Origin: an uncultured Candidatus Saccharibacteria bacterium
Lineage (GTDB): Bacteria > Patescibacteriota > Minisyncoccia > Phycocordibacterales > UBA918
Assembly: GCA_964469295.1 (NCBI GenBank)
Contig: CAYXYJ010000004.1
Span: forward strand, 17,557 to 81,556
Length of the DNA stretch: 64,000 nucleotides
Direction of reading: 5' to 3'
This document shows, in pieces, positions 11,186-35,243 of the stretch (position 1 is the stretch's first letter; every line of letters begins with the position of its first letter). Position numbers and translations under genes: made by a program. The notes beneath the pieces are model-generated. The model had not been told where the DNA came from and did not search any database. It saw only the letters and a list, made by a program, of their open reading frames with translations.

Positions 11186-12646
11186 ATGTTTGCCCGCTTC
11201 AAAACACCAGCATCAATCGCTTCACATCCGCCGTTAACCCTTTTTTCCACCGAAACGAGAGAGTTGGCTTATTTTATTCCGCGTGTACCGGGCGAAGTAA
11301 CCATGTATTCGTGCGGTCCAACGGTATACGATTATGTCCACATCGGCAATCTGCGGGCATACGTGTTTGTAGACATTTTACAAAAGACACTTGCATACAA
11401 CGGCTACAAAGTAAAAAACACTATCAATTTAACTGACTTTGGTCATCTTACCAGTGACGGGGATGCCGGCGAAGACAAAATGATGAAGGGCTTACGCCGT
11501 GAAGGTAAACCCATCACTCTCACGGCCATGCGTGAGTTATCGGATTTTTATATCACCGCCTTTAAAAATGACATCGCCCAGTTACGCATCAAATCCCCCA
11601 CCACCTTTTCTCGAGCCAGTGATTACATTGAAGAACAAATTGCTTTGGTAAAAACATTAGACGAAAAGGGCTACACCTATGAAACGAGTGACGGTGTGTA
11701 TTTTGATATTGCCAAATTCCCTGCCTACGGCCGGCTTGGTCACATCAATGTTGAAGAGCTCCGTGCTGGTGCTCGCGTCGAAGAAAATACTGAAAAGCAT
11801 CACCCGGCTGATTTTGCGGTTTGGAAAAAAGGTTTACTCGGTTGGGATAGTCGTTGGGGTAAAGGGTTCCCCGGTTGGCATATTGAATGTTCAGCTATGG
11901 CAATGGCCACGTTGGGTAAGGAAATCGATATTCACACTGGTGGTATTGATCATATTCATACACATCACAACGCCGAAATTGCCCAAAGTGAAGCGGCCAC
12001 GGGTAAACAATATGTCCGCTATTGGATGCATAATGAGTTTATTACTATTGACCACGGCAAAATCGGTAAATCGTTAGGCAATGCCATCACGTTAAAACAA
12101 ATTATCGACAGCGGATTTTCGCCTGATGATTTTCGGTATTGGCTGTTAACGGCACACTACCGATCACCGTTGAATTTTAGTTTTGAAGCGTTAAAGGCGG
12201 CCAGACAAGCGTTATTTCGTCTCAAACGATATGTCTATGAAGAATACAAAAATGCATCGACAACCCCCGATCAGCATTACATTGCAGAGTTCCATACCTA
12301 TATCAATAATGATTTGGATACACCGAAAGCCATCGCCCTGTTATTTGATATCACTAAAGACACGACACTCGATGCGGGAGTAAAGTGTGCTACTATCCAA
12401 CATATTGATTCCGTTCTGGATATTGGATTGCATGATGCCATTGATACGGGGTTAGCTTCTCTTGGTGTCGTCTCCGCCAATACACTCCCCGATGAGATTG
12501 AAACATTAGTGACCGCAAGGCAAACTGCTCGCCATAATAAACAATGGGACGAGGCCGATCGTTTGCGCACTAAACTTAATCTGGCAGGATATATCATCGA
12601 AGATACGCCCCAAGGACAAAAGGTGTCAAAAGCCAATTCCAATTAG
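11186..12646 (+). CDS. cysS: cysteine--tRNA ligase
   Basis: HIGH region (CGPTVYDYVHIGNLRAY), zinc-site Cys, KMSKS equivalent KIGKS; the true start may be about 15 codons downstream of the ORF-track Met. Confidence 0.9.
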   Translation: MFARFKTPASIASHPPLTLFSTETRELAYFIPRVPGEVTMYSCGPTVYDYVHIGNLRAYVFVDILQKTLAYNGYKVKNTINLTDFGHLTSDGDAGEDKMMKGLRREGKPITLTAMRELSDFYITAFKNDIAQLRIKSPTTFSRASDYIEEQIALVKTLDEKGYTYETSDGVYFDIAKFPAYGRLGHINVEELRAGARVEENTEKHHPADFAVWKKGLLGWDSRWGKGFPGWHIECSAMAMATLGKEIDIHTGGIDHIHTHHNAEIAQSEAATGKQYVRYWMHNEFITIDHGKIGKSLGNAITLKQIIDSGFSPDDFRYWLLTAHYRSPLNFSFEALKAARQALFRLKRYVYEEYKNASTTPDQHYIAEFHTYINNDLDTPKAIALLFDITKDTTLDAGVKCATIQHIDSVLDIGLHDAIDTGLASLGVVSANTLPDEIETLVTARQTARHNKQWDEADRLRTKLNLAGYIIEDTPQGQKVSKANSN

Positions 12647-14387: not shown

Positions 14388-15008
14388 ATGACGAATATCG
14401 ATAAACTCACTGCGTATTTTGAGCAATTTCCGGGCGTGGGCGGTCGTCAAGCCAAACGGTTTGTGTATCATGTTCTCACTCTCGACAAAGGAGCTATTCA
14501 TGAGCTGTCATCGTTAATTGCCACCTTAGAACAAACAGTGACAAAATGTGCGTCCTGTCATCGTTTTTTTTCTTCATCACATACCACCACGGTTACGGTA
14601 TGTGCGATTTGTAATGACAGTCACCGCGACCAAAAAAAATTATTAGTGGTAGCGAGCGATAACGACATCATCGCTATTGAACGGAGCGGTTTGTATGATG
14701 GACTGTACTTTGTCCTTGGCGGGACCGTTCCCCTTCTCCATAGCGAAGACCAAAAAAAGTTACGTGGCGGAGCGTTGAAGGCCACTATCGAAGCCCGACT
14801 AAAAACCGGTTTATCCGAAATTATTTTGGCGTTTGCGGTTAATCCTGATGGTGAAAACACGGCCCGGTTTGTGGAATCAATTATTGCCAGCATTGACACC
14901 ATAACGCCGCCCCAGGTATCCCAATTAGGCCGCGGTCTTTCAACCGGTAGTGAACTTGAATACGCTGACCCGGATACCATCAAAAGTGCATTACAGAATC
15001 GTTCTTGA
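14388..15008 (+). CDS. recR: recombination protein RecR
   Basis: FPGVG HhH motif, C4 zinc finger (CASCHRF...CAICND), Toprim region. Confidence 0.9.
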   Translation: MTNIDKLTAYFEQFPGVGGRQAKRFVYHVLTLDKGAIHELSSLIATLEQTVTKCASCHRFFSSSHTTTVTVCAICNDSHRDQKKLLVVASDNDIIAIERSGLYDGLYFVLGGTVPLLHSEDQKKLRGGALKATIEARLKTGLSEIILAFAVNPDGENTARFVESIIASIDTITPPQVSQLGRGLSTGSELEYADPDTIKSALQNRS

Positions 15009-15047
15009 TTTTATTTGATTAGTGTTATATAATTTTATTGTTCACTA

Positions 15048-15284
15048 GTGGAGGACATCAGAGTGACTAATTTTGTGGTGACGTTCACACATGAGCGGAC
15101 GGGCGAAACTCGCACGTTTGAATTTTCGCTCAGTGAATACGTGCGCGCCAGCCAGTGGCTGGAACACCCCATCACAGGCATCGACGCGGCGTTTTGGCTG
15201 AATGAGAGCAATCTCAACCGCCAAACCGCCTTCTCGGCGGTCTTGGTCTGGAGAAACGAGCTAAAACAGAAAGGCGCCCCCTAG
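15048..15284 (+). CDS. small GC-rich hypothetical protein (ORFan); likely start GTG at 15062 behind a GGAGGA RBS
   Basis: ORF with local GC well above its flanks; SD GGAGGA 7 nt before GTG; followed by a GC-rich terminator. Confidence 0.35.
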   Translation: MEDIRVTNFVVTFTHERTGETRTFEFSLSEYVRASQWLEHPITGIDAAFWLNESNLNRQTAFSAVLVWRNELKQKGAP

Positions 15285-15293
15285 GGCGCCTTT
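15270..15293. terminator. rho-independent terminator (AAAGGCGCCC-CCTAG-GGCGCCTTT)
   Basis: perfect hairpin seen directly in sequence. Confidence 0.6.
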
Positions 15294-16981: not shown

Positions 16982-17263
16982 ATGGTTACTCGTGCTTGTG
17001 CAAGTTTTGCATTCTGTGACGTGTCACATCGTGTCACTATCACGTTCCCTATCGTGCTCTCGGAACGTGGCAAAGCTATTTATTTGGATTGGTTACAACG
17101 AGAATTTTGGCGGTACACCAAAGTGATTTGTTGGGTAACGGACAACACCGTCCGATTGGTCGCACGTGGCGGCAAAGACTTAGCTGAAAACATGATGTTC
17201 CTGAAGCAATACGCGCGCACCATCGTTGGCCGTATTAACGGGACCCCGCCCCGCGCGTACTAA
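16982..17263 (+). CDS. small hypothetical protein
   Basis: ORF followed at 17287-17315 by a hairpin plus T-run terminator; no recognisable domain; weak RBS. Confidence 0.25.
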   Translation: MVTRACASFAFCDVSHRVTITFPIVLSERGKAIYLDWLQREFWRYTKVICWVTDNTVRLVARGGKDLAENMMFLKQYARTIVGRINGTPPRAY

Positions 17264-17286
17264 GGTACCAATAGGTGCCTTACCTG

Positions 17287-17315
17287 GATCCGGCACCTGC
17301 CGGATCTTTTCTTTT
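17287..17315 (+). terminator. rho-independent terminator (GATCCGGC-ACCT-GCCGGATC + TTTTCTTTT)
   Basis: seen directly in sequence. Confidence 0.6.
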
Positions 17316-17357
17316 GTGGTATGCTAATGTGGTGTTATTGTTAAGTAAAATACTTCT

Positions 17358-17810
17358 ATGTCCCTCCACGAATCCCTCCGTGAATCACTAAAAGACGCCA
17401 TGAAAGCGAAAGACGCCGTTACACTTCGCACTGTTCGCAGTATTATGACCGCTGTCACCAATGAATTAGTCGCTACTGGGAAAACGCCACAAAGCGCACT
17501 TGATGATGCTGGAGTATTGACGGTTATTAAACGCCTCGCCAAACAACGAAAGGAATCAATCATCCAATATGAGGCGGCGGGACGAACTGATTTATCTGAA
17601 CCAGAAAAAGAAGAGTTAACGGTGCTCGAAGCGTATCTCCCCACGCTCATGAGCCAAGACGCTATTCGTCCATTGGCTGAGGCTAAAAAAGCAGAGCTTG
17701 GTATTACTGACAAAAGTAAAATGGGAATGCTCGTTGGTGCGCTGATGAAAGATTTGAATGGACAAGCTGATGGCGCTGACGTTAAAGTAATTGTCGAAAG
17801 TTTATTTTAA
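17358..17810 (+). CDS. yqeY: GatB/YqeY domain protein
   Basis: LKDAMKAKD...TLRTVRS..T N-terminal signature and overall approx 150-aa helical YqeY pattern. Confidence 0.75.
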   Translation: MSLHESLRESLKDAMKAKDAVTLRTVRSIMTAVTNELVATGKTPQSALDDAGVLTVIKRLAKQRKESIIQYEAAGRTDLSEPEKEELTVLEAYLPTLMSQDAIRPLAEAKKAELGITDKSKMGMLVGALMKDLNGQADGADVKVIVESLF

Positions 17811-17819
17811 ATTATTCGC

Positions 17820-18140
17820 ATGCGATTTGAAGGTCAGCCAAAACCTCATACCCCAACCGAAATATTGGCGGCACTTGATCGTGGTGACATCATATCAGGA
17901 AAGCGACTGTACGATGTGACTTTAGAAGCACCGTACGGAAATATTATCGCGCGGGTTAACGAAACTGAAAAAACTATTACCTATACACATAATGGTGTGT
18001 CGATTGAGGCTCATTTTGATGATGAAAACATCACTCATTTTGAAGTAACTGACTCCATTACTGCACGGTCTATTTCAACCCCCATTATTAGACAGCAACA
18101 CCAGGCAATTCTGAATGAGTGGCATAATGCTAGACAATAA
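17820..18140 (+). CDS. hypothetical protein
   Basis: ORF only; no motif recognised. Confidence 0.3.
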   Translation: MRFEGQPKPHTPTEILAALDRGDIISGKRLYDVTLEAPYGNIIARVNETEKTITYTHNGVSIEAHFDDENITHFEVTDSITARSISTPIIRQQHQAILNEWHNARQ

Positions 18141-18864: not shown

Positions 18865-19566
18865 CTAAAACAATTCCATGTTGTACTCCTTTGCCAAGAC
18901 TTCCAATGTGACGGCCTTATCAATCGAAAAATTTCCAACCTTTGTACGGCGTAAATTATATAATGTCGCGGGATAACCAAGTCTTTGACCAAACGCTTCG
19001 GCGAGCGAGCGAATATAGGTACCGCTACCTACTTGAAATTTAACCGTTACCAGTTGGAACTGTTTGTTATCAATGAAGAGTGCTTGGGACGTCATTAATT
19101 CGGTGGAGTAGACGTGCATGGCGCGCGCGGGCACGGGGAGCGCTTGGTGGCCTTGGCGCGCTGCGGCCCGCGCGCGCTTATACATCGGTACACCATCGAC
19201 TTTGATGGCGCTATAGGCGGAAACCGGCAGAGTGATGTCACCGTGCAGTGTGGCCAGGGTCGCGGAAATTTTTTCGGCCGAAAAAATTTCCGCCATTTCA
19301 CGCTCTGCCAACACCACCCCTTCCATATCCCCCGTACTTCGCTGTTGACCAATCAATATTTCAGCCACGTATTCTTTATCGAGTTTAACCAAAGCCGCAA
19401 GCTGCTTTGTCCACCCGCCAACGCCAACCAGCATAAGTCCTGTCGCCAGCGGATCGAGCGTCCCGGCATGACCAGCCTTTTTTACACTCAAAATCCGTCG
19501 CACGCGGGCAACGACGCCAAACGATGTCATACCGGCAGGCTTATCGATCAACAGAAGCGTTTCCAT
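18865..19566 (-). CDS. truB: tRNA pseudouridine(55) synthase
   Basis: LLIDKPAGMTSFGVVARVRR...GHAGTLDPLATGLMLVGVG catalytic Asp motif. Confidence 0.85.
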   Translation of the reverse strand: METLLLIDKPAGMTSFGVVARVRRILSVKKAGHAGTLDPLATGLMLVGVGGWTKQLAALVKLDKEYVAEILIGQQRSTGDMEGVVLAEREMAEIFSAEKISATLATLHGDITLPVSAYSAIKVDGVPMYKRARAAARQGHQALPVPARAMHVYSTELMTSQALFIDNKQFQLVTVKFQVGSGTYIRSLAEAFGQRLGYPATLYNLRRTKVGNFSIDKAVTLEVLAKEYNMELF

Positions 19567-19587
19567 ATCCGCACCAAACCCATTTCC

Positions 19588-20859
19588 CTAAAGCACCAAC
19601 AATTCGGGCGCCGTAATGAGAAGCGCACCTAAGAGCAGCATCAAGACTCCGCCAATCAGCAGCGACCAGCGCGAATATGTAGCACCATGGGCTTCAAGCC
19701 GTGTAAAGCCCCAAATCGCCAACCCAAATACAACAAAGTCGTCAATCATGTATCCTAAGGTGTAGAGCAAAATGTAGAACTGCCGCTCGACGAAAGTAAG
19801 TAAATTAAGATCAAGGATTTTCGTGTAGGCTTGCGGGATACCGATCGAACAGGCGAACTCGATAATATTGACTGAAAAGGCAATGAGAACAATCGCGCCA
19901 ATGGTCGTCAGGGTTAACGGCTGATTGATGATGGCCTTTAATTTATTCACGGTTTTCGTCTGACTATCGATATCGGTGATATCGCAGACGAGCGCTGTCG
20001 CCTGGCTCTTGTGCCAGCGGTATAAAAAGAAACTGCCCCCGCCGACCGCCAGAATGCCAACAAGTGGCGTGACGATCTGATCGAGCGCCACGAAATCCCA
20101 CGTCTTGTACCACACATTTAAAATCAGGTTGTACATGACGGCTTCGGCGACGATAAACAGTCCAGCCAAAAAGAGCATTTTGCGACGGCTGCCGGCCTGG
20201 GCCAAGAGCATCAAAAAGGTGATCAAAACCCACATGGCACATGGATTGAAGCCATCAATAAGACCAAGAAGGAGTGAGAGTGAAATGAGCGAAAATGATT
20301 TGAGATCAACCACCCCAATTACCGGCAAATCAAATGTAAACGAGGCTTCGGCGGCTGTACAGCCGATTTCGGAACAACCGCCACCAAATGGTACGACTTG
20401 CACCGGTGCCTGGGCGATATGATCTTCGACCGTGATTACGGTGGTATCGGACTGCGACTGAATCGCTTTTTCCAATTCGATTCCAGTGGTGCGAGGACTG
20501 TCAAAACCCAAAAACACTCGGTCTCCAATCACCGTCACTGGCGTTACTTTTGTCAGGTTGTGTTTGGCAGTTACCTGGTCATAGAGGTCTTTGGCAGCCG
20601 CATCCGTTTCGATATTAAGGTAGACGTAATCAATCCCCGCTCCGGTTAAAAATTCTTTTTCCGCTTTGCAAAAACCGCAAGTATCGCGACCAAACAGGTA
20701 CACGGTGGGTTCCTTACTGGTAGCCGGTACATTCATTACCTCATTCACAACTATACTGGGGTCAGTCACCGGTTCGGCTGCCGCCGAGGATACTGTCCAT
20801 CCGACTGAGATTGCTCCAAAGAATATCCACCCGGCCACCAAAACTTTTTTCGTTATCAT
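19588..20859 (-). CDS. glutaredoxin/thioredoxin-like domain fused to a polytopic DsbD/CcdA-like (DsbD_2) thiol-disulfide membrane protein
   Basis: signal/TM, CGFC redox motif, then a multi-TM domain with GFNPCAMW (Cys within TM) and a second Cys-containing TM segment. Confidence 0.45.
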   Translation of the reverse strand: MITKKVLVAGWIFFGAISVGWTVSSAAAEPVTDPSIVVNEVMNVPATSKEPTVYLFGRDTCGFCKAEKEFLTGAGIDYVYLNIETDAAAKDLYDQVTAKHNLTKVTPVTVIGDRVFLGFDSPRTTGIELEKAIQSQSDTTVITVEDHIAQAPVQVVPFGGGCSEIGCTAAEASFTFDLPVIGVVDLKSFSLISLSLLLGLIDGFNPCAMWVLITFLMLLAQAGSRRKMLFLAGLFIVAEAVMYNLILNVWYKTWDFVALDQIVTPLVGILAVGGGSFFLYRWHKSQATALVCDITDIDSQTKTVNKLKAIINQPLTLTTIGAIVLIAFSVNIIEFACSIGIPQAYTKILDLNLLTFVERQFYILLYTLGYMIDDFVVFGLAIWGFTRLEAHGATYSRWSLLIGGVLMLLLGALLITAPELLVL

Positions 20860-20882
20860 AGCGCACTCTAGTATATCAGAAT

Positions 20883-20919
20883 AACCACCGGGCGGGGGCT
20901 ACACCCCCGCCCGGTGGTT
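20883..20919. terminator. rho-independent terminator (AACCACCGGGCGGGGG-CTACA-CCCCCGCCCGGTGGTT)
   Basis: perfect 16-bp GC stem overlapping the 3' end of the DUF45 ORF. Confidence 0.6.
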
Positions 20920-21375
20920 ATTTCCCCTCTCGCCCCCGCCTGTCATCAGAGACGCAGTTTGATACGCCACCAAAGCTCCTCGACTCATTCCAATAGTTCT
21001 TTCGAGCAAACGCAATTCCTGACGATCCGCCACAAAGGTGGGGCACCAAATGGCTACTTCCTGCCAGAAAGCGGCGCCGTGATGTAAATGCCGACGATGA
21101 CACAATTCATGAATGACTACATACCGCATGAGATGTTCCGGCAAAAATAATAATTTGTAATGAAAATTCAGATTGCCTTTGGCGGAACAACTGCCCCAAC
21201 TGCGTTTGGTGTCCTTGATCGCTACACGATTATAAGTAACCCCGATCCGAGCAGCTTCAGCGGCAATAAGCGGCGCAAGCTTCGCTCGCGCCGCTTCTTT
21301 ATACGCCAAATACGCCTTGCGTTTTGGTGAGGCGTCACGAATGACCCGTCGCGTTGTCCGCCACAATCGCCGCAT
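20899..21375 (-). CDS. YgjP/DUF45-family metal-dependent hydrolase (WLM/SprT-like zincin)
   Basis: HELCHRRHLHHGAAFW zinc-binding HExxH-like motif typical of DUF45. Confidence 0.6.
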   Translation of the reverse strand: MRRLWRTTRRVIRDASPKRKAYLAYKEAARAKLAPLIAAEAARIGVTYNRVAIKDTKRSWGSCSAKGNLNFHYKLLFLPEHLMRYVVIHELCHRRHLHHGAAFWQEVAIWCPTFVADRQELRLLERTIGMSRGALVAYQTASLMTGGGERGNNHRAGV

Positions 21376-21377
21376 AC

Positions 21378-23162
21378 TTATACCGCGACCGCCTGTCGAT
21401 GATACGCTCGCACCAGTCGAATAAGATCGTAACCATACTGCTCGTCGGTCGCTTCATAGAGCGGTTTTAATTTATCGCTGCCGTGGACGGCAATGGCCTC
21501 ACAAATTTTTTTTATCGCGTGCCCAGAAACATCTAATTCAGCAATAGCTCGCTCTAAATCAGCAACTACCAAATTTCCATCTGCGACCAGTTTCTCAATA
21601 TGTTCCGCAATGGTACCAATATTAATCTCGCGATTTTTAGCGATTGACCGTAATGTCTCTCCCGCTTGCCAACGAGATTTGGTTTCTTCATAGGTTGACA
21701 GTTTTTTTGCACGTTCTTTGACCGCTCGTTTCCCGGGCAAGATAACCGTATCAGCACTTGGCAATTTCCCGCCACAACTCGTAATAAATTGCGTTTGTAA
21801 GGTAAGCAAATTGTCGTCACTCATAGCGACAAATGTATCTTCGGTATATTCAGAATCCATATGAAATTGCCTATCTCGGGTCACGACTTTTGGATCTACC
21901 TGCAGTGCATTTGGATGCATGCCCAAGACCTTTAAACCCGAAAGTGACCGCACCCGCGACAGCGCCACGTACCCCTGCCCGAACACAAACGCCTTCGATA
22001 AATCTACTTCAGCCGCATCGAGTGACATCCCCTGGCTTTTATGGACCGTGATCGCCCACGCCAGGCGAAGCGGGATCTGCTCGATTGAAGCGCGAATCTT
22101 GCCATCTTCGATGACATCCCAACTCATTGGTTCCATCAAGATTCGTCTTCCATCGAGAGTTTCAATAATCGGATGCGCATCGGTACTATTATCAAACCCC
22201 ACCACGCGCGCGAGCGTACCGTTGACGTATCCCGCTTCAAAATTATTCTTCGTACACATCACCATCGCGTCTTCTTTTACCGTCAAGGTATCCGGCGACA
22301 AGCAATTCTTCACGAGCACTTCAAGTAACGGTTTACTCCCCCGTCCCACCATCGTGTACGTTTTTGCACGTCCGGGCAACGCCGCTAATTTGGTGGCGTT
22401 CACCGCATCAACATCGGCATTGTGTGTATACAATTTCGTTGGCTCAACACCTTCGTACGCGATATCAGTCTGCTCATTCAGTAATGTGTAATGATCTTCC
22501 TCAATTTCATTGCGACGGATTGACGAGAGTAAACCGAGCAACAACTCATCCTCCTGTCGATGTTGTTCGGTCAGATAACAGACAAGCGGACGCGATTCAA
22601 GCCACGCCCGCGATTCAAACGCATAACGCATCATGTCACCTTGCCGCGTCACTGGTGGTAATTGGAAAAAGTCACCAACGAATATAACTTGTAGTCCGCC
22701 AAAGGCATCCTTTCGTTGTCTGATCGTCCGACAAATCACATCCACCATATCAAGGAGTTTCCCATCGAGCATCGAGATTTCGTCGATAACCAGCACGTGG
22801 GCTTTTTTAACTCGCTTTACGGTCGCCTCGCGACCGACAATTTGATCGAGGTCGTACTGTGTCAAAGTATCACGCGCCCCGGCGCCACTCCACGAATGAA
22901 TTGTCATGCCCCCGATATGCGTCGCCGCAATCCCGGTCGACGCCGTCACCGCGACGTGAAGCCCGCAGGCTTCAAGCCACGCGATATATTGGTTAATGAC
23001 ATACGTCTTCCCCGCCCCCGGCTCTCCGGTCAAAAAGACATTGGCACCGGTTTTTAGCACCTCTAACGCCCGCGCTTGGTTCATAGTGCCACTATCATAC
23101 CACGGCGACACAAACATTGACTTTTTTAAAAAATTGATAATATCACGGACGTCACCAACCAT
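21378..23162 (-). CDS. Pif1/RecD-like ATP-dependent DNA helicase with a C-terminal helicase-associated HTH domain
   Basis: Walker A GEPGAGKTYV, Walker B VLVIDEISM, SF1 motifs (VGDFFQLPPV, HKSQGMS), C-terminal helical HTH-like 130 aa. Confidence 0.75.
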   Translation of the reverse strand: MVGDVRDIINFLKKSMFVSPWYDSGTMNQARALEVLKTGANVFLTGEPGAGKTYVINQYIAWLEACGLHVAVTASTGIAATHIGGMTIHSWSGAGARDTLTQYDLDQIVGREATVKRVKKAHVLVIDEISMLDGKLLDMVDVICRTIRQRKDAFGGLQVIFVGDFFQLPPVTRQGDMMRYAFESRAWLESRPLVCYLTEQHRQEDELLLGLLSSIRRNEIEEDHYTLLNEQTDIAYEGVEPTKLYTHNADVDAVNATKLAALPGRAKTYTMVGRGSKPLLEVLVKNCLSPDTLTVKEDAMVMCTKNNFEAGYVNGTLARVVGFDNSTDAHPIIETLDGRRILMEPMSWDVIEDGKIRASIEQIPLRLAWAITVHKSQGMSLDAAEVDLSKAFVFGQGYVALSRVRSLSGLKVLGMHPNALQVDPKVVTRDRQFHMDSEYTEDTFVAMSDDNLLTLQTQFITSCGGKLPSADTVILPGKRAVKERAKKLSTYEETKSRWQAGETLRSIAKNREINIGTIAEHIEKLVADGNLVVADLERAIAELDVSGHAIKKICEAIAVHGSDKLKPLYEATDEQYGYDLIRLVRAYHRQAVAV

Positions 23163-23173
23163 AGGAGGTAAAA

Positions 23174-23812
23174 GTGACGAAAAAACGTAAAACTGGATTG
23201 TCCAATCCGCTGATCGATCTTTGCGCGGAGGTCTTCGGGTTGACCTCCATCACCTGTCCCCGCCGCTGCAGGCTCCCGGACGAGTACCGGAACATCGGTC
23301 TGAAGAATGTGCTTGGGGCTTGGGACGTCTGCTCTGACGTGATCAACTCCAACCAGGGCAAGTTGTACCTGCCGAAGGGCTGGGAACTGACCTTCCCTGA
23401 TACCCTGCGGATGGTGGTGGATTCTGAGCGTGGCCATCGTATGACCATTTCCGACAGCCGTGTCTATATCCATTCGCCGATCAGGGTTCAGATGAACGGT
23501 GACCTCGAGACGATGACTACCGAATGGGTCGAGGTACTGCATCACGGAGAGGTGGTCTTCCGTTCGACCATCCTGTCGTCCAAGGAACGTCCGATGGCTC
23601 CCGATGTCTACGAACTCATGAAGGAACTGGTTCCTCCGGACAATCCCTACTGGGAAAACGTGCCGGATGTTGCCATGCCCACTTCGGAAGAGGAACGGGA
23701 GCGTGCGAACTACGAGGCGTATCTGGCCCTGAAGCCGTACTACGATGAGGCCGAGGCGTTCGTTCGGGAGCACTACCCGCTTCTCAACAGGGACCCCAAC
23801 GCTTACTGGTAG
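23174..23812 (+). CDS. GC-rich hypothetical protein (ORFan)
   Basis: about 58-60% GC ORF with high GC3 in an AT-rich genome; AGGAGG RBS; the antisense ORF 23126..23773 is judged spurious. Confidence 0.4.
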   Translation: MTKKRKTGLSNPLIDLCAEVFGLTSITCPRRCRLPDEYRNIGLKNVLGAWDVCSDVINSNQGKLYLPKGWELTFPDTLRMVVDSERGHRMTISDSRVYIHSPIRVQMNGDLETMTTEWVEVLHHGEVVFRSTILSSKERPMAPDVYELMKELVPPDNPYWENVPDVAMPTSEEERERANYEAYLALKPYYDEAEAFVREHYPLLNRDPNAYW

Positions 23813-24211
23813 ATCAAGGCTCGCCAGACATTATATAGCACGACCTGGGTAGTGACGAGTTCCTTGAATCCATATTGGATTAATGTAAGTTCTTAAATAT
23901 GTACGCTCGCGTATTGAGCACCACCTGAGCCAGACATGAAAACGACAGCGATTCGCCGCATCACCCCCCTGCTACATGCATGGGGGTTTATTTTATAAAA
24001 ACATGGCTAACGACACGAATCATAATAGCGTTTTATTGACTCTTTCGTAGATATCGTTACTCTATCGTTAGATGTCCAAACCGCTTAGTTGCTAAACGGC
24101 AAACCGGTCCGCAGTCGCACACCTATCATGACCCTGCTGACGCCTTATGTTTCTGCTAAGGCCTGCACGGACGATTCCAACAACGCACACAAAAAAATGG
24201 AGGAGACTAAA

Positions 24212-24490
24212 ATGAGCTGGCGGCAAAAGTTGCTCTGCAATCTCGCACAACCCTACATCCTCGTTGATGCTGGCAACATCTTGTATGTCAGCAGCACCGA
24301 TTGGGTGACTGAACGCGAATTACAGGAACGTGTACACAGCATCTTTCCGGAACGATGGTCATCATGGGATATCGTCAGGTTTCGCCTTGGCCTTGGTTAT
24401 CTGGTGGCACACGGCCACCTTGAACAACAACGGTTTTCCGCCAAACACCATGACGAATTGCGGTATCGACAAGCAGGAAGGACCGAATGA
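24212..24490 (+). CDS. GC-rich small hypothetical protein
   Basis: GGAGGAG RBS 7 nt before ATG at 24212; followed by hairpin plus T-run at 24516-24545. Confidence 0.3.
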   Translation: MSWRQKLLCNLAQPYILVDAGNILYVSSTDWVTERELQERVHSIFPERWSSWDIVRFRLGLGYLVAHGHLEQQRFSAKHHDELRYRQAGRTE

Positions 24491-24601
24491 GATTTACGTC
24501 GACACCAAGCCGCGCACCACCCCGGTGCGTGGCATTTTAAATTCTTTATTTGTGGACAGTGAAATGCTTTTTAAAAAGAGTGCGCTACAATAGATGTATC
24601 T

Positions 24602-27315: not shown

Positions 27316-27356
27316 GTCCACTCCCCCCTTTATTTTTTTGCAAATGTCTGCTATAA

Positions 27357-27392
27357 ATATGGGCACTTTTGCTATAGCAAAAGTGCCCATAT
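27357..27392. promoter_or_regulatory. perfect 36-nt palindrome ATATGGGCACTTTTGC-TATA-GCAAAAGTGCCCATAT; candidate operator or terminator
   Basis: seen in sequence; lies about 45 nt upstream of gene 26752..27315 and about 35 nt before tRNA-Glu. Confidence 0.4.
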
Positions 27393-27426
27393 TTCATTAC
27401 GTCAAAACGCAGTATACGATTTATAT

Positions 27427-27498
27427 GGTCCCATCGTCTAACGGCTAGGACAGCAGGTTTTCATCCTGCAAATCGGAGTTCGATTCTCCGTGGGATCA
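27427..27498 (+). tRNA. tRNA-Glu (anticodon UUC)
   Basis: cloverleaf folded by hand: acceptor GGTCCCA/TGGGATC, D-arm GTCT-AACGGCTA-GGAC, anticodon stem GCAGG/CCTGC with loop TTTTCAT (UUC), T-arm CGGAG-TTCGATT-CTCCG; resembles canonical bacterial tRNA-Glu; no encoded CCA. Confidence 0.85.
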
Positions 27499-29162
27499 CA
27501 AATAGAGGATAATCGGTCAGAGAAAGGTTCAAATCCTTTTTTGACCTTATAATCAAGCATATTTTTTGCTACATAGAGTTCTGAAAAGATGACACGTGCG
27601 ATGTTCTCTTTTTCGTGCGGTTTTGCATAATCGTAAACAGGCACAACGTTTTTTATCAGTTCTGAAAGAATGATAATCTCTTTCATCAGCTCTGCCATCG
27701 CTTCGTCTGATGCGCTCTCTGCCTCCTGTAGTGCTGTTAGTTCTCCCTGTAGTCGCTCACCCTCGGCAACAAGTCCCTCTGGGGTGTACACGCCTGATTT
27801 GAGTAGCTGTAAACGATTGGTATTTAAGTATGAGATGTCATCTCGAATACGCTTTTTTGTACGCTCCATCTGTTGTATCTCTCTAAAGCGACGCTCATCC
27901 AACAAAGCAACATCGGTACTGGTCCGCGCATCTAAATCAGCAAGTTCGTCATCTGTAAAATGTAGTCCTGCAATCAGTCCACTTATTTTGTTAGAGATAA
28001 AATCAAAGTTGCAGTTTTTGAGAGTGTTCTCGCAATCCTTTACGCATCGTGAATTGAAATACAGGATGCCTTTCTTGGTATATGGAGTATAAACTCGTTT
28101 ACAGTGAGCGCATCGGACCATACCGCGCATTGGGTGGTCCAGTTTTTCTGTATAGTGGACACTTACTTTCTTTTTACCCAAGAGTGATTGGACCAGATTA
28201 AATAACTCATCATCAACAAGCGCCTCGTGGCTAGTACTCTGAATATAAATGCCGTCTGGACCGATTATCTTTCCCGTATAAAACTGATTGGTCAAAATAC
28301 GGCTAATGCTATTCTCATTTACTGGACGAGTGGTTTTTTCAATCTCAATATCCTCATCCTCATCGGCGAGGATTTCATCTCGTGAGCGACGACGGCGCAT
28401 TGGTACAGTCGTAAAACCTTGGTCATTTGCAAAACGTGCAATGTCTGACAAGCTCCAGTCACCCGTTGCATATTTTTCAAACATTTCTTTTATTATCGGC
28501 GCTCGCACAGGGTCCAACGGCTTATCGTCCATACTACCGATATTTAGATACCCGATTGGCGCTCTGTAGGTACATTTTCCTTTAGTACGGCTATTTCTAG
28601 TACTCATCGTTACTTTCTCGCTAGTTACGCGAGAATGATGTTGAGCAAACATTCCATCAATATCCATATGGAGCGCACCAGCACTTGTGTCGTCATACGT
28701 AGCGTAGGCAAAACGCACGTCAATACCTCGTCGCATCAATTTGCGAATGATTGTATCGTCACCTTTATTTCGACTAATACGGTCCCAACAAAGGACCACC
28801 ACACCCTTGAAATAACCTCTGCTTAAATGTTGTAGTAGCTGTTGGAACTTTGGTCGGTCAATACGGTACTGAACCACGCCATCATCAGAAATATGTAAAT
28901 CATCTGTCTCCTTAAATCCAGAGTGCTTTTCAGAAACAACACCATCGGTACAAAAGCCCTTTAGAGTTACTGGAGCAAGTTGTAGACGTTCACGTGTCAA
29001 AAAACGCATATTCTCTACTCGTTGGTATGGGATAGAGTTCTTTTGATTATTCGCCTCGTCGGTACTTTTACGATTGTAAATAAGATAGTGGTCACTATAA
29101 ATACCGCTTTGAATAGCTTTCAGAATATCTGTCTCTATTTTCGGCTTTTTATTCATTTTCAT
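27438..29162 (-). CDS. large serine recombinase (integrase)
   Basis: N-terminal resolvase domain (IYNRKSTDE catalytic Ser, VVLCWDRISR), recombinase domain, zinc ribbon CAHCKRV...CVKDC, C-terminal coiled-coil; the last approx 20 codons overlap the tRNA-Glu gene. Confidence 0.85.
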   Translation of the reverse strand: MKMNKKPKIETDILKAIQSGIYSDHYLIYNRKSTDEANNQKNSIPYQRVENMRFLTRERLQLAPVTLKGFCTDGVVSEKHSGFKETDDLHISDDGVVQYRIDRPKFQQLLQHLSRGYFKGVVVLCWDRISRNKGDDTIIRKLMRRGIDVRFAYATYDDTSAGALHMDIDGMFAQHHSRVTSEKVTMSTRNSRTKGKCTYRAPIGYLNIGSMDDKPLDPVRAPIIKEMFEKYATGDWSLSDIARFANDQGFTTVPMRRRRSRDEILADEDEDIEIEKTTRPVNENSISRILTNQFYTGKIIGPDGIYIQSTSHEALVDDELFNLVQSLLGKKKVSVHYTEKLDHPMRGMVRCAHCKRVYTPYTKKGILYFNSRCVKDCENTLKNCNFDFISNKISGLIAGLHFTDDELADLDARTSTDVALLDERRFREIQQMERTKKRIRDDISYLNTNRLQLLKSGVYTPEGLVAEGERLQGELTALQEAESASDEAMAELMKEIIILSELIKNVVPVYDYAKPHEKENIARVIFSELYVAKNMLDYKVKKGFEPFSDRLSSICDPTENRTPICRMKTCCPSR

Positions 29163-29376
29163 TTTGTTTGACCAGTCGTCCCTCTATTATAACGTACCCA
29201 TCTTTCCTCATCCTGATGTATATAGGTTTGAGTACCTCGGACAGCTCTACCAGTGCCTTTAGCGAGCAGTCGGATAGCACCTTATTTGGGACCTTATCGC
29301 AACTCACAAAACCGCGTTGCAAATCGCTTTTTTCAAACGTACTGGTTTTGTGTAGCTCGCTCATTATCGTGTGCAA
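29149..29376 (-). CDS. small protein overlapping both neighbours; candidate recombination directionality factor/regulator
   Basis: 75-aa ORF whose ends overlap the Rep gene (13 nt) and the integrase gene (14 nt); no motif recognised. Confidence 0.3.
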   Translation of the reverse strand: MHTIMSELHKTSTFEKSDLQRGFVSCDKVPNKVLSDCSLKALVELSEVLKPIYIRMRKDGYVIIEGRLVKQNENE

Positions 29377-30545
29377 TTAGCCAAAACAGAGCGAGTAACG
29401 AGTTCATATTTTTCGATTTCGTCATCTACAAAAGCCACACCATTTGCATATGGCAAACCTTTTGTAAGTTCTGACGCTTGGTTGATTTTCTCATTTAATC
29501 GCTCTGGATGTTCTCCGTTCCAGTGACTAAATATAAGTCGGCGGAACTCTTTAACACCGTTTTCACGGATGATACAAGTCAAACCATATGCTACGAGCGC
29601 CTTGTTCATACTATGAGCGCCACCAAGCGCTTTTGCGCCCTCTACAATGCGCTGTAGCAAGCGAAAACTATCAATAGGACCAATGAGTGCTAGTTGGTTT
29701 TCTGGACGGCTAACAATGTCGCGCCACGAGTTCAATAGCACTTTTTGAGATAATCCCTCCGTAAACAGGTCCCTGAAAGCTACGTAGGTTAATGGCTTAC
29801 GGTCCATTGCAGAATTGATGTCTCGCTGTACCGTCTGGGTTTTCTTGATGCGATACTCGTAGCGAAAAATCTCCGTATGCTCTAGGTTATATTCGTCAAT
29901 AAGAGTTCGCTCATAATCAATATGACCCTTATCTTTTCGCTTCACCTTGGGTCGCATTGCATCTACTACCTTGTCGTAAAAAACTCGCTCTACGGTCCCA
30001 CAGTAGAGGTGTAATATCTGACCACCGTTTTTTGTTTCTTTGGCGGTCACATCAAATGCTTTCCCAATATCTACACGCCCAAGCTCTGCCAAAATATCTT
30101 GTAAGCGTATGTCTCTTGGCAATAGTACATTCTTGCAAAAATGAACCGCCGAAACGCGAGCGCTCGCAATAGCTTCATTTTCGATTTTGATACCAACACG
30201 TAAAAGTACATCTCTAAACACGGTCACTACTTTCCCAAAGTCCTTATCTGACACCTCTTGTAAACTGTTGCCGTAAAGTAACTTCGGTATTGAAAACTCT
30301 GCAATGAGTACGTACACAATCGTTTTATGCTCTCTATCCAGAGTTTCAAGAACATCAATTTTTGGGGTGTAGCGAGATTGATGTGGAGCTTTAAGCACAA
30401 ACCGTCGCAAATACATTCGATTTGAAAGCTGTTCAGTTGGTGAAAGCTCGTGATATTTACGGCTATATATTTCAGGCAAGAACCAATCCTTTTTTGTAAA
30501 GGTAAACTTCTTGGGTCCGTATATCTTGAGAATGACTGTATCCAT
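29364..30545 (-). CDS. replication initiation protein, Rep_trans-like (rolling-circle type)
   Basis: blocks resembling Rep_trans conserved regions (ILHLYCGTVERVFYDK... and EIFRYEYRIKK); recalled from memory, not searched. Confidence 0.4.
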   Translation of the reverse strand: MDTVILKIYGPKKFTFTKKDWFLPEIYSRKYHELSPTEQLSNRMYLRRFVLKAPHQSRYTPKIDVLETLDREHKTIVYVLIAEFSIPKLLYGNSLQEVSDKDFGKVVTVFRDVLLRVGIKIENEAIASARVSAVHFCKNVLLPRDIRLQDILAELGRVDIGKAFDVTAKETKNGGQILHLYCGTVERVFYDKVVDAMRPKVKRKDKGHIDYERTLIDEYNLEHTEIFRYEYRIKKTQTVQRDINSAMDRKPLTYVAFRDLFTEGLSQKVLLNSWRDIVSRPENQLALIGPIDSFRLLQRIVEGAKALGGAHSMNKALVAYGLTCIIRENGVKEFRRLIFSHWNGEHPERLNEKINQASELTKGLPYANGVAFVDDEIEKYELVTRSVLANCTR

Positions 30546-30591
30546 AGTGATATTCGTTGTTGTCGGTATTTTTCAAGGAAACCTCTGCTCG

Positions 30592-30858
30592 CTAGTCGGA
30601 GTAGAGTTTTGTCTTGATAGCTTTTAGATTGTCAAAGTACGACCGCGCTTTGACTTTAAGGTCGTCACTGAAAAAGCGATTGGAGGCAATCTCAATTCCT
30701 TTCTTATACTCAAATACAAACAAGACACGCCGTCCGTTTGAGCGGTCCAGATTTTGCAACTTATAACCGACAGTCAAGAGTGCTGTTGAAAGTCCCAAGT
30801 CGTATGTTGTGAAAACGTCGTCACCACTGTTCTCTTCATTGCTCTTTTCTTTATTCAT
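30592..30858 (-). CDS. DUF5659-like small protein
   Basis: TTYDLGLSTALLTVGYKL...RVLFVFE core typical of DUF5659 proteins found beside integrases in mobile elements. Confidence 0.5.
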   Translation of the reverse strand: MNKEKSNEENSGDDVFTTYDLGLSTALLTVGYKLQNLDRSNGRRVLFVFEYKKGIEIASNRFFSDDLKVKARSYFDNLKAIKTKLYSD

Positions 30859-30976
30859 AGTAATTGTTTATGTGTTAGTGCGAGACGATGTCTCATACAT
30901 AAATGGCATAAAGTTACCGAGTAAGAAAAAACACCCAGTTTACGGGTGTTTCGTCCGTTAGATTTTATTCTATTTG

Positions 30977-32227
30977 TTACTGCGAGAATGATTTGAAAAT
31001 GTCATCTGCTTCACTGGCGAGGGTTTCTGCTTTTGTTGGTTCAGTATTTTTATCCGTATACCCGATAGTCATTTTGAGTGTGTACGCTTTCTCCTTTGTG
31101 TAAGTCTTAAATGGGTCAGTATCAAGACGGAAGTAGTTTTTGAGAGCAGTTGAGAGGCGAGCTTTTTGTTGTTTATACTTATCTTTTGCTTCTGGGTCAG
31201 ACGCGGGTAGTGAGCCACCCTGTTTTGCAAGCAGTCGGAGCAGTATCCATAACTCATTGCAAACACCTTTCTTTCTACCATCAGCAAAACCCATATCCGC
31301 AAAACCTGTTTCAAGTGAATTGCCAGCAACATTGATTTTGACATACTCATCATTCAAGAACGTGAGCATTATATTTTCCCAGCGTGTACCATCAGGAATG
31401 GTGTACGGGAAACCAACTTTGGTGGTTTTATCTGGGCTAGTGTTGTTGATATTCAAGTCAATCGGCTTCTCTTGGATGCTGTTCTCAAAGCGATGGTTAT
31501 GCTCGTGCCGTATCACTTTTTCAACTATCTTTTCTGCATTTTCCTGTGTCACTTTAGGACTTTCTTTTGGTGCAATAAGCATATCCTCATTTATTTTGCA
31601 GTGTGCATAGTCAAATATCCAGCCATAGTCGTCAACAGCTCGCTCTTCAAACTCATATGAGGTTACCAAGCCAATTTCGTGTAGACGTTCAATTGCAATT
31701 CGGCGGTAGTACGGGAGATTTACATCATCAGGAGCAGGGTCATAGTTCGATAACGTAAGATTATCTCCCATTGGATACTCATACGTCACACCTTTGATAC
31801 GTATTTTGTTGTATTCATTCTTAAAAAAGTTCACCGCTTCCATTAAATAATCAGTTGATGTCTTACCCTTTTGTGTAAAATCTACCGCCACTTTTTCGGT
31901 ACTAAAACTATCAACCTTTTCGAGCATATAATAATCACCGTTCCCCACAAGAGTGAGGTCTTTGATATATTGTTCCTGCTCCAATTTCTGCAAAATCCGC
32001 CGATGCTCATTCCTTGTTAAAGCTGTCCACTCTTCTGGATTATCAGGATGCCCGACACTGGTGACGTGATACCGAATAGGTCCCTTTGGGCTTATCAAAG
32101 TTTCACCGTCTATATTGTCTTTTACATACTGTATTTTTTCTTCGGGCGACATAATATATTCATTTTCATACTCATCAAAAGCAATGCCTTTAATATGGCT
32201 TATTGTAAAGGTATTATTATCTTTCAC
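30977..32227 (-). CDS. hypothetical protein (416 aa), first gene of the leftward island operon
   Basis: long ORF; no recognised motif. Confidence 0.4.
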   Translation of the reverse strand: MKDNNTFTISHIKGIAFDEYENEYIMSPEEKIQYVKDNIDGETLISPKGPIRYHVTSVGHPDNPEEWTALTRNEHRRILQKLEQEQYIKDLTLVGNGDYYMLEKVDSFSTEKVAVDFTQKGKTSTDYLMEAVNFFKNEYNKIRIKGVTYEYPMGDNLTLSNYDPAPDDVNLPYYRRIAIERLHEIGLVTSYEFEERAVDDYGWIFDYAHCKINEDMLIAPKESPKVTQENAEKIVEKVIRHEHNHRFENSIQEKPIDLNINNTSPDKTTKVGFPYTIPDGTRWENIMLTFLNDEYVKINVAGNSLETGFADMGFADGRKKGVCNELWILLRLLAKQGGSLPASDPEAKDKYKQQKARLSTALKNYFRLDTDPFKTYTKEKAYTLKMTIGYTDKNTEPTKAETLASEADDIFKSFSQ

Positions 32228-32322
32228 AAGGTGCTTGCATTTTTGTGAATATATTGTATATTACTTTCTGAAAGAACCCTCGTCGTGGAGGTCTCACGAA
32301 GTTCAATAAGACGGAGGAATAA

Positions 32323-32862
32323 ATGTCCGACACATATGGTTCGCAAGAAGCCCAAGACCTCATCACCTTGGAGGTGAAGGTCGAAGGTTATGACAATTGG
32401 CGCGACGCTTTCGCTGAAGAAGTCGAGCTTTCGGGAACTTGGGCAAAGGAAGCGGGGAAAAGCAAAGCTTCGTTGCTCGAAGCGTGCGATATCACTGCAC
32501 GTCTGAACCGCATTTCCCGAGAGGTTGAATACTTCTCGACCCTCATCAATATGGGCTATGCCCTTGAAGAAGCTGTTGTCACCTTCGACAACGACAGCTG
32601 GGGCAAGTTCGGGAAATGCACGTGGATTAAGGACCATACGTCGTACTCTGACCCCGAGGTCTTCTGGCGGAAGGTGGTTCCTGAAGCATCCGATTACTCT
32701 GTGTCCCTCGTTGCCGCCTGTTTCAACACGGAAAACGCGGGCGAGCAGAAAATCACGCTGTCCTCGGTCGCTATCAGCTCTGGCTTCCTCTTTCACAAGA
32801 CCCTTCGTTTCCACCGTATGGTTTTTTCAAAACCGAAGGAGAAAGAAGCAGTCGCCGCCTGA
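32323..32862 (+). CDS. GC-rich hypothetical protein (cargo)
   Basis: GGAGGAATAA RBS, elevated GC, downstream hairpin plus T-run; the antisense ORF 32224..32814 is judged spurious. Confidence 0.4.
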   Translation: MSDTYGSQEAQDLITLEVKVEGYDNWRDAFAEEVELSGTWAKEAGKSKASLLEACDITARLNRISREVEYFSTLINMGYALEEAVVTFDNDSWGKFGKCTWIKDHTSYSDPEVFWRKVVPEASDYSVSLVAACFNTENAGEQKITLSSVAISSGFLFHKTLRFHRMVFSKPKEKEAVAA

Positions 32863-32967
32863 TTGGTCCTATCGCCTTGAAGCCGTCTCGGTTTCGAGGC
32901 GGTTTCTTTTTTATATAACAAACTCTTGTAGTATTTGTATGTTTGATTTGATGTACTGCCTCTCTTT

Positions 32968-32999
32968 ATAAAGTTCTGAAAGCCACGCTAATGGGTCAC
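32968..32999 (+). repeat. island repeat copy 1 (left half only): ATAAAGTTCTGAAAGCCACGCTAATGGGTCAC
   Basis: seen directly; 32/32 identical to copy 4. Confidence 0.8.
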
Positions 33000-33047
33000 C
33001 AATTAGAGAGCTGGTTCGAGCACTCGAGAAGGCTCGAATCTCGAAAC

Positions 33048-33077
33048 AAAAAACTACTCAGATCTGAGTAGTTTTTT
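33048..33077. terminator. bidirectional terminator (AAAAAACTACTCA-GATC-TGAGTAGTTTTTT)
   Basis: perfect hairpin with flanking A/T runs. Confidence 0.7.
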
Positions 33078-33666
33078 GTTATTAGCTCACAATACTTTCA
33101 TCAACCATAATTAGCTGGACGAGCCAGTCCAAGTTCTTCAACATAATCTCTCTTATCATTAGATTCACCCTTCACGATATCAAAAGAGATGTCGCTGATA
33201 CACACGATATTGATTTAGTGTATTTTGACAATATAAACATAGATGAAGAAAAAGACAGAAAACTTTCAGAGAGTATGAAAGGTGCTCTTGGCCTTGATTG
33301 GGAAATAGTTAATCAAGCTTACACACATAAATGGCACGACAGAGACACTCCGTATACGAACACTGCAGAAGGGTTGTCAGAGTGGGTAGAAACACCTACT
33401 TGCGTTGGGTGACACTAGAGAACGAAGAACCAAAGATAGTAGCTCCTCACGGGATTGATGACCTCGTTAACTTGATAGTTAGACCAACTCCAAGTCGGAA
33501 AGGTGATTTGAGTATTTTTTACAAAAGAATTGAGAGTAAAAAATGGTTAGAAAAGTGGCCCAAACTACGAGTGGTTACTGAAAGAAGATAAGAAACAAAA
33601 TCAAGAACTATATGAAAACCCCGACAGACTTGCGTCTATCGGGGTCCCCCCCTGACGGTCAGACCG

Positions 33667-34080
33667 TCAAATCACGATATCGACCGGGGAGATGCTCCAC
33701 CCCATCACACCTTGCGGAACGAGGTCGGCTTTCTTGCCCTGCTTGGGGCGAGTGCCGAGTCGGTCACGCAGGTACTGAAGCAGGCTGTTTACTGCCTTCT
33801 TGTGGGTCTTCTTCTCGCCATCGGGGAGGATGTAGTGGAACGCAATGTAATGCGTGCCATCACCGCCTGCACCACGGATGTGGAGGTCAACCCAACGTTC
33901 GGGCGTGCGAGACTTCATTTCGGAAATGAAGTCAGCGAGCTTCTCGATGGACACCGAAGCGTCGAACTTCACGGTGCCAGCGACATGGTGGTCACGGTTC
34001 AAAAGAGCAGTCATCAGTTTCTCCCATAAACGTGGAGGGTACGCATAATCGGGATTGACTATGCTTTTTTTTAATATCAC
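33667..34080 (-). CDS. GC-rich hypothetical protein (cargo)
   Basis: approx 58% GC ORF; the antisense ORFs 33612..33929 and 33712..34029 are judged spurious. Confidence 0.4.
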   Translation of the reverse strand: MILKKSIVNPDYAYPPRLWEKLMTALLNRDHHVAGTVKFDASVSIEKLADFISEMKSRTPERWVDLHIRGAGGDGTHYIAFHYILPDGEKKTHKKAVNSLLQYLRDRLGTRPKQGKKADLVPQGVMGWSISPVDIVI

Positions 34081-34160
34081 ACTTTTGCGTGTTTTGCAAG
34101 CCCTCGCCTATACCAAACTACCAAGCAAAACAATGCTACTTTTAATATATTCTCGGTCCT

Positions 34161-34253
34161 TATACAGTTCTGAAAGCCACGCTAATGGGTCACAAAGTAA
34201 AGAGCTATAGTTATCGAGGTATTTCAGGGCACCTTACTGGGAGTTCAGAACTC
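34161..34253 (+). repeat. island repeat copy 2 (full approx 93-nt dyad unit: left half 34166-34193, imperfect inverted right half 34219-34253)
   Basis: seen directly; followed by a TGTATAAT -10-like box 8 nt upstream of ATG at 34275. Confidence 0.8.
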
Positions 34254-34274
34254 TTTATTGTATAATTTTACTAT

Positions 34275-35230: not shown

Positions 35231-35243
35231 ATATACTTTTCCA

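Follow-up and report, generated by a model that had tools for sequence, protein, structure and literature searches.

Small GC-rich genes of a Paceibacteria contig as probable horizontal acquisitions in a tRNA-Glu island and in short intergenic slots

The DNA investigated here, referred to as the window, is the whole 64,000-nucleotide stretch that was analysed, and is a contig of Paceibacteria (Patescibacteria/candidate phyla radiation, CPR) with a GC content of 44.3% (0.443). It includes several small genes, designated A to F, which the original prediction described as GC-rich insertions acquired repeatedly by a common mechanism from a high-GC donor, such as a host or a phage. The GC-rich small genes are probably horizontally acquired, self-contained units that were taken up in insertion and recombination hot spots by two routes. 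Genes D and E would be mobile single-gene units in an island located just downstream of tRNA-Glu, and A, as well as B together with C, would have entered short intergenic slots, probably by recombination with DNA of a GC-richer relative. Of the original prediction, acquisition was thus retained, as the genes are foreign in composition, self-contained and missing from the same positions in relatives, but the single mechanism and the donor host were not supported.

Base composition and organization of the candidate genes

The gene models of A to F were refined from the sequence (starts, Shine-Dalgarno (SD) sequences and stops) as follows, where GC3 is the GC content at third codon positions.

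A, 15063-15284, + strand: 73 aa, GC 0.554, GC3 0.70, SD GGAGGA
B, 23174-23812, + strand: 212 aa, GC 0.570, GC3 0.74, SD GGAGG
C, candidate gene, 24212-24490, + strand: 92 aa, GC3 0.54, SD GGAGGAG
D, 32323-32862, + strand: 179 aa, GC 0.526, GC3 0.63, SD GGAGGA
E, 33667-34014, - strand: 115 aa, GC 0.566, GC3 0.70, SD GGGAG
F, candidate gene, 44437-44583, - strand: 48 aa, GC3 0.53, SD GGAG

Composition was compared with that of 49 background genes of the window, from which the truB-pif1 block described below was excluded (GC 0.436±0.025, GC3 0.397±0.045, maximum GC3 0.53). The GC3 values of A, B, D and E lie 5-7 gene-level standard deviations above the background (z 4.1-6.1 including codon sampling), and the GC content of these genes is matched by just 0.08-2.4% of sequence windows of equal length. 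Hence, the sharp anomaly claimed originally holds for these four genes (GC3 0.63-0.74 versus 0.40), but not for C and F, for which the deviation is marginal and not significant (z 1.6-2.1 including sampling, with 7-8% of windows equally GC-rich). Open reading frames (ORFs) outside the original list, e.g. 16982-17263, are as GC-rich as C and F.

Each unit has its own SD sequence and terminator, and a promoter-like site was found for A, D and E. Antisense shadow ORFs were present, as predicted, at 23126-23773 (- strand), 32224-32814 (- strand) and 33612-33929 (+ strand). The candidates had been described as all coding on one strand, but E and F are encoded on the minus strand. They had further been said to be followed each by a GC-rich perfect hairpin; those at 15270-15293 and 24509-24533 proved to be intrinsic terminators of the ordinary kind, and the one at 33045-33080, located ~180 bp past the stop codon of D, is an AT-rich perfect palindrome with 18-bp arms that does not belong to D. 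No meaningful match for A to F or for the other cassette genes described below was found in Pfam, PHROGs, NCBIfam or PADLOC, the only hits, of 0.068 (Pfam) and 0.008 (PADLOC), both falling short of any threshold.

Relatives of the window

Core genes in the window include dnaB, recR, rplU, rmuC, yqeY, truB, a glutaredoxin-domain gene (grx), ygjP, the PIF1 helicase gene (pif1), an FAD-linked oxidase gene and an mraZ-mraW-ftsI-murE cluster. A scan for the FAD oxidase in species-representative genomes yielded 45 loci, which were taken as the relatives of the window, the closest having 79% protein identity. These are from Patescibacteria metagenome-assembled genomes (MAGs) labelled as Paceibacteria, Kaiserbacteria, Nomurabacteria and similar, with the exception of one Planctomycetota label and a few designated only 'bacterium'. 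The original guess of an epibiont-type genome is therefore reasonable, as the cultivated members of Patescibacteria are epibionts. The locus GC of the relatives ranges from 0.39 to 0.57, and their mean GC3 from 0.31 to 0.77.

The gene order recR-rplU-rmuC-yqeY-truB-grx-ygjP-pif1-FAD oxidase is conserved across the relatives, and homologues of A, B, C, D and E are absent from this block in all of them. Orthologues at identical positions had been named as the result that would speak against acquisition, and A, B and C have none in the relatives. D and E combine deviant composition, a patchy distribution and a similarity above that of core genes, and A, B and C show the first two of these features.

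Exchange of the D and E units

The D and E units lie in the following region.

tRNA-Glu(UUC), 27427-27499, + strand: the only tRNA gene of the window; anchor of the variable island
Large serine recombinase (LSR) gene, 27438-29162, - strand: 574 aa, Resolvase and Recombinase domains; 3' end overlaps tRNA-Glu
4.7-kb insert, 27504-32233: between tRNA-Glu and D, LSR gene first; boundaries determined by blastn
D unit, 32234-32923, + strand: promoter-like region, coding sequence 32323-32862, terminator 32871-32906
E unit, 33610-34196, - strand: terminator 33610-33644, coding sequence 33667-34014, 5' untranslated region (UTR), promoter-like region, copy 2 of the junction element R at the end

D has 14 homologues (64-98% identity), the named ones being from Patescibacteria MAGs, and it is located downstream of tRNA-Glu in L068-L071 (L-numbers are labels for the other loci and contigs compared with the window). 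The order is FAD oxidase, two genes, tRNA-Glu and D in L068, and pif1, one gene, tRNA-Glu and D in L069-L071; the window has the same order, except for the added 4.7-kb LSR insert between tRNA-Glu and D. DNA homology to L069 and L071 is confined to the D unit. The identity of D at 4-fold degenerate sites is 0.50-0.56, versus 0.26-0.38 for core genes, and between the window and L069 the values are 0.56 and 0.26-0.36, respectively.

Likewise, E has 36 homologues, and those with names are from Patescibacteria MAGs. DNA homology to the E unit was found in eight other genomic contexts, where it begins at R and ends past the terminator, the noncoding flanks being conserved along with the gene. The 4-fold-site identity of E between L050 and L053 is 0.64, versus 0.19-0.28 for FtsZ, TrxB and TsaD. 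Between the window and L053 or L056, the synonymous divergence (dS) of E is 0.065-0.093 (0.065 for L053), and the DNA around the gene has a GC content of 44% in the window, 52% (0.525) in L053 and 40% in L056. Fourteen loci, from 10-11 distinct contexts, were compared, and in each of them E has a higher GC content than the DNA around it (0.46-0.57 versus 0.36-0.52), with lower values in the more divergent copies. This is consistent with repeated movement of the gene and its slow amelioration.

Because D and E are far more similar at synonymous sites than the core genes of the same genome pairs, these data indicate that both units have probably been exchanged recently within the clade. Paceibacteria would thus pass such units on far more recently than their core genomes diverged, and the units would retain the composition of previous hosts. 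The ratio of nonsynonymous to synonymous divergence (dN/dS) is 0.1-0.2 in the deeper pairs of both D and E, which shows that their products are functional proteins. E is predicted to adopt a ferredoxin-like alpha+beta fold (pLDDT, a model confidence score, of 85), with a weak resemblance to ABM/IsdG-type proteins.

The E homologues of L050, L053, L057 and L060 are oriented antisense to tRNA-Glu and lie no more than 3 kb from it, and the D homologues of L068-L071 are likewise found within this distance of tRNA-Glu. The region upstream of E (34015-34165) is conserved across genomes and includes the promoter-like site TTGCAA-17-TATTAT, and CCCTCC in the 5' UTR could pair with the SD sequence GGGAG, which would possibly allow translational control. 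Further GC-rich genes (GC3 0.67-0.69) are present beside E in the tRNA-Glu islands of L050, at 8827-9675 (coordinates counted in the orientation of tRNA-Glu), and of L060, at 8060-8458 and 10941-11309. As the L050 and L060 genomes have a GC content of 41-43%, the pattern of GC-rich genes noted originally recurs in relatives. An early observation of an identical E protein in different backgrounds was retracted, since L051 and L052 proved to be parts of L050, and L054 part of L053.

The tRNA-Glu island and its repeat array

The original term 'tRNA island' is incorrect in that tRNA-Glu is the single tRNA gene of the window, yet a genomic island that contains D and E does adjoin it. A search of the whole window against Rfam at the gathering threshold gave the tRNA and chance matches only, and at an E-value threshold 32.8-35.95 kb gave nothing beyond chance matches. 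Most of the relatives scanned have tRNA-Glu downstream of their FAD-oxidase gene. The island begins at 27504, directly 3' of the tRNA gene, and a site-specific recombinase is found at its tRNA-proximal end, as in L053, L018 and L030. In each of these four genomes, the LSR gene ends within tRNA-Glu on the opposite strand, and the recombinases of L018 and L030 are only 24-26% identical to that of the window. tRNA-Glu appears to have been targeted repeatedly by elements of the large serine recombinase family.

Besides the serine recombinase, the 4.7-kb insert encodes proteins of 393 and 416 aa and a DUF5659 protein, and its GC content is host-like. It is missing in L068 and L069, and all four genes occur together also in L034 (CP060229). 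The flanks of the island are conserved and its content is variable, as tRNA-Glu and, on the far side, a homologue of g37439 are common to the window and L060 but the genes between them differ. A second copy of the tRNA-Glu 3' end was not found in the window. Additional direct and inverted copies of this end (CGTGGGATCAC) are present downstream of tRNA-Glu in L033 (8106-8426) and L057 (1349-1359) and are likely scars of earlier integrations. A perfect palindrome with 20-nt arms is located just upstream of tRNA-Glu at 27355-27394.

Downstream of D, the island continues as an array of short units.

R copy 1, 32972-32999, + strand: 28 nt, AGTTCTGAAAGCCACGCTAATGGGTCAC; followed by the palindrome at 33045-33080
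Degraded cassette, 33100-33591, + strand: frameshifted, N-truncated ORF pair (three-frame translation), between R copy 1 and the E unit
R copy 2, 34166-34193, + strand: end of the E unit
D3 copy 1, 34194-34258, + strand: ~65 nt, after R copy 2; ends in TGTATAAT, with the start of gene 34275 8 nt on
Cassette gene, 34275-35066, + strand: 263 aa, AT-rich, GC3 0.30, no Pfam family
R copy 3 with D3 copy 2, 35142-35235 (D3 35171-35235), + strand: directly upstream of gene 35244-35714
Cassette gene, 35244-35714, + strand: 156 aa, GC3 0.38, no Pfam family
R copy 4, 35747-35774, + strand: terminator hairpin next

Against 0 expected, four copies of R were found in the window, each of them on the + strand. 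They partition D, the degraded ORF pair together with E, gene 34275-35066 and gene 35244-35714, and the units would thus be separated by R as the junction element, often joined by D3. R was also found in seven other genomes (L017, L033, L050, L053, L056, L057 and L061), and it has the orientation of tRNA-Glu wherever that gene is present. D3 ends in a -10-like box located 8-14 nt before the SD-less starts of genes 34275 and 35244. In L057, L050 and L047, D3 directly follows the 3' end of tRNA-Glu, which takes the place of R. R itself is no copy of that 3' end, having in common with it only AGTTC...TGGG(A)TCAC, i.e. the ends. The 9-mer AGTTCTGAA occurs eight times versus 0.5 expected, in all cases within the island, with two occurrences in the 3' end of the LSR gene and two, inverted, in D3. 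The array is read here as a set of small units anchored at tRNA-Glu and presumably built by site-specific recombination, for which LSRs are the obvious candidate enzymes.

Folding of R-D3 was no better than that of shuffled sequences (z -0.72 and -1.63), only 9-nt terminal inverted repeats being present. Interpretations as a small RNA or riboswitch and as an attC hairpin were dropped on account of the folding, and a XerCD dif-like reading of the 28-nt R was rejected by eye, as its arms are without dyad symmetry. The degraded pair at 33100-33591 looks nucleotidyltransferase-like by eye only, a name that no database match supports, and its 33331-33591 fragment had no Pfam, PHROG or NCBIfam match. 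In L017, an intact D3-gene-R cassette at 17283-18030 is flanked by 39-bp perfect inverted repeats, and its gene is likewise nucleotidyltransferase-like by eye.

Genes A, B and C in short intergenic slots

The original positions of two inserts between core genes, recR and rplU in one case and the PIF1 helicase and FAD-oxidase genes in the other, were confirmed. A sits in the convergent recR-rplU gap.

Expression signals of A, + strand: SD GGAGGA at 15050-15055; promoter-like TTGATT-17-TATAAT at 15005-15033 (promoter scan)
Terminator, 15270-15293: bidirectional, common to A and rplU; 10-bp stem with 7 GC pairs

In relatives with an empty gap, one such bidirectional terminator is present. The gap is 55-82 bp long in L014, L018 and L039, each with one bidirectional terminator, and 181 bp in L015, where it holds no ORF. 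In five other relatives, it holds differing small ORFs of 69-97 aa on the + strand, most of which have a visible SD sequence before them and a hairpin after them in the printed sequence. A is absent from all 10 relatives that cover the gap. An independent assembly from the same organism, L073, reproduces both junctions (recR-A-rplU) with 100% identity over 908 bp, and A is therefore not an assembly artefact.

B and C occupy the slot between the divergent pif1 and FAD-oxidase genes, the start codon of B being 12 bp from that of pif1.

C terminator, 24509-24533: ordinary intrinsic terminator of C
truB-grx-ygjP-pif1 block, 18865-23162, - strand: GC 0.49-0.52, GC3 0.51-0.56

The pif1-FAD oxidase gap is 50-280 bp in ~28 of 43 relatives and contains one to three ORFs in the other ~15, mostly unrelated to one another and to B and C. 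Slot ORFs are GC3-rich compared with their hosts in L007 (0.69-0.73), L008 (0.71) and L012 (0.62). Among 5.8 billion proteins, B has three homologues at 47-49% identity besides its own 100% entry, and their alignment revealed a strikingly conserved C-terminus. The contigs of the homologues are short, with 49-53% GC, the same composition as that of the homologues themselves. No family, fold, phage or plasmid match was found for B, and C matched itself alone among 1.84 billion representative proteins. An independent assembly of the same organism from another sample, L072, covers the B-C interior (99.4% over 1041 bp) and confirms this internal stretch only, not the junctions to pif1 or the FAD-oxidase gene.

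The GC3 of the neighbouring truB-pif1 block exceeds the core mean of the locus by 0.04 to 0.09 in the window, versus -0.02 to +0.01 in relatives. Because the elevation is specific to this genome, 18.8-24.5 kb may have been imported en bloc from a GC-richer relative, with a local recombination effect as the alternative, and B and C would then possibly have arrived together with the adjacent block.

F is found elsewhere in the window, downstream of an aminoacyl-tRNA synthetase gene on the - strand, with two GC-rich hairpins (44335-44373 and 44391-44415) located 3' of it.

Alternative explanations

In the original prediction, capture of genes by an epibiont from a high-GC host, such as one of the Actinobacteria, was offered as a plausible origin. 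The window does belong to a Patescibacterium, and the genes are GC-richer than the genome, but their GC3 of 0.63-0.74 and GC of 0.53-0.57 are within the range of sister Paceibacteria, and typical actinobacterial genes have a GC3 above 0.85, well over that of the candidates. The D and E families are present in Patescibacteria genomes, no homologue of B, C, D or E could be attributed to another phylum, and the candidates matched no curated family; a host origin is therefore very unlikely. As the GC3 of the family spans 0.31-0.77, GC-richer relatives probably suffice as donors. According to a published survey (PMC12455944), most of the individual gene transfers detected in Patescibacteria are between Patescibacteria. 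A phage source, with the genes as morons or prophage remnants, i.e. autonomous promoter-gene-terminator units delivered by temperate phages, would account for the deviant GC content, the SD sequences, terminators and three promoter-like sites, and the serine recombinase element adjoining tRNA-Glu. This origin is improbable, however, given that none of the candidates or island genes tested had a PHROG match, that IMG/VR was empty for B, D, E and R and INPHARED for B and E, that no phage structural Pfam family was detected among the scanned genes, and that A, B and C lie directly between core genes.

It is also unlikely, though slightly less so, that the genes are old residents with a GC3 raised by codon or mRNA selection or by GC-biased gene conversion in recombination hot spots. 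The recurrence of D behind tRNA-Glu in four other contigs, the excess GC content of E at every locus compared and the GC elevation of the truB-pif1 core block in this genome only are all consistent with such native genes. The synonymous-site identity of D and E is, however, far higher than in core genes of the same genome pairs, the noncoding flanks of E are conserved, A, B and C occur in 0 of 45 relatives, and the translation-related genes checked are not GC3-rich (rplU, 0.47; greA, 0.37). An artefact, whether a chimeric MAG assembly or noncoding GC-rich DNA with chance ORFs, is scarcely credible. The contig is metagenome-derived and GC-rich DNA gives long shadow ORFs on both strands, but independent assemblies reproduce the two junctions of A and the B-C interior, homologues of B, D and E are conserved, with a dN/dS of 0.1-0.2 for D and E, and each gene has an SD sequence and a terminator.

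Several findings weigh against the favoured reading of horizontal acquisition into hot spots. Orphan genes in relatives show no general GC enrichment. None of A, B and C could be traced to a donor, the homologues of B being on short contigs without taxonomy, whose neighbouring genes matched none of the loci compared, and the 90%-identity clusters of A and of F have no other member, distant homologues not having been searched for. In the 18.8-24.5 kb region, synonymous sites are saturated against the nearest relatives and identities are star-like. The array is irregular, in that D3 follows two of the four R copies of the window but neither copy 1 nor copy 4, and for none of the units was an excised or circular form, or a polymorphic empty site, observed. 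Neither R nor D3 lies near A, B, C or F, so that the flanking-motif check proposed originally detected junction repeats in the tRNA-Glu island only; with two kinds of site, and with R and all copies of AGTTCTGAA confined to the island, one common mechanism is not supported. Finally, with cassette GC3 values between 0.30 and 0.70, the array is not GC-rich in itself; its units therefore stem from donors of differing composition, and the original prediction caught the GC-rich ones only. When orphan GC3 was regressed on core GC3 over the relatives, the slope of 0.41 was confounded by spurious ORFs, and the result was not used.

With these points taken into account, the GC-rich gene set is largely explained by mostly ordinary horizontal transfer into hot spots, and the tRNA-Glu/LSR array deserves a closer look.

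Significance and comparison with known systems

Patescibacteria genomes are tiny, and gene gain in them is poorly understood. In the window, accessory genes cluster in a few very small hot spots, and some of the units would be single-gene segments of ~0.6 kb that move between lineages at least 10 GC points apart. Such movement would explain the patchwork of composition without host genes. It is possible, though on balance doubtful, that the R-D3 array is an undescribed gene-capture platform of Paceibacteria, in which LSRs would recognize the 3' end of tRNA-Glu, and R as its mimic, as attachment (att) sites and D3 would serve as the promoter for leaderless cassettes. If so, the platform would be a functional analogue of an integron made from a serine recombinase and a tRNA gene. 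A real capture system of this type would give an uncultivated phylum a compact means of shuffling genes, and might yield site-specific recombinases whose natural target is defined.

Like phage morons, the units are autonomous promoter-gene-terminator segments with a composition unlike that of their surroundings, but they lie outside any prophage and have no phage homologues in PHROG, IMG/VR or INPHARED. The recR-rplU and pif1-FAD oxidase slots are comparable to chromosomal hot spots of horizontal gene transfer and flexible islets in being empty or filled with unrelated genes in relatives; they differ in holding just one or two genes and in having no adjacent mobility gene.

The array resembles integrons in its series of one-gene units joined by a conserved element, in the occurrence of units in several genomes, and in the -10-like box of D3 directly before SD-less start codons. 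However, Pfam scans of the island genes revealed only the serine recombinase and no IntI tyrosine recombinase, R-D3 forms no attC-like hairpin (z -0.7 and -1.6), D and E carry their own promoter-like regions and terminators, E is inverted, and a tRNA gene serves as the anchor of the array. The other counterpart is the tRNA-linked accretion island, i.e. arrays of cis-mobilizable elements and integrative and conjugative elements (CIME/ICE). The modules of the window differ in having only 0.6-1.2 kb and mostly one gene, R is not a copy of the tRNA 3' end, the coding 3' end of the LSR gene overlaps the tRNA, and no excision product was seen for the window island. With CIME/ICE arrays, the island has in common its position 3' of a tRNA gene, a site-specific recombinase gene abutting that tRNA, direct repeats between modules, content that varies among relatives and a deviant composition.

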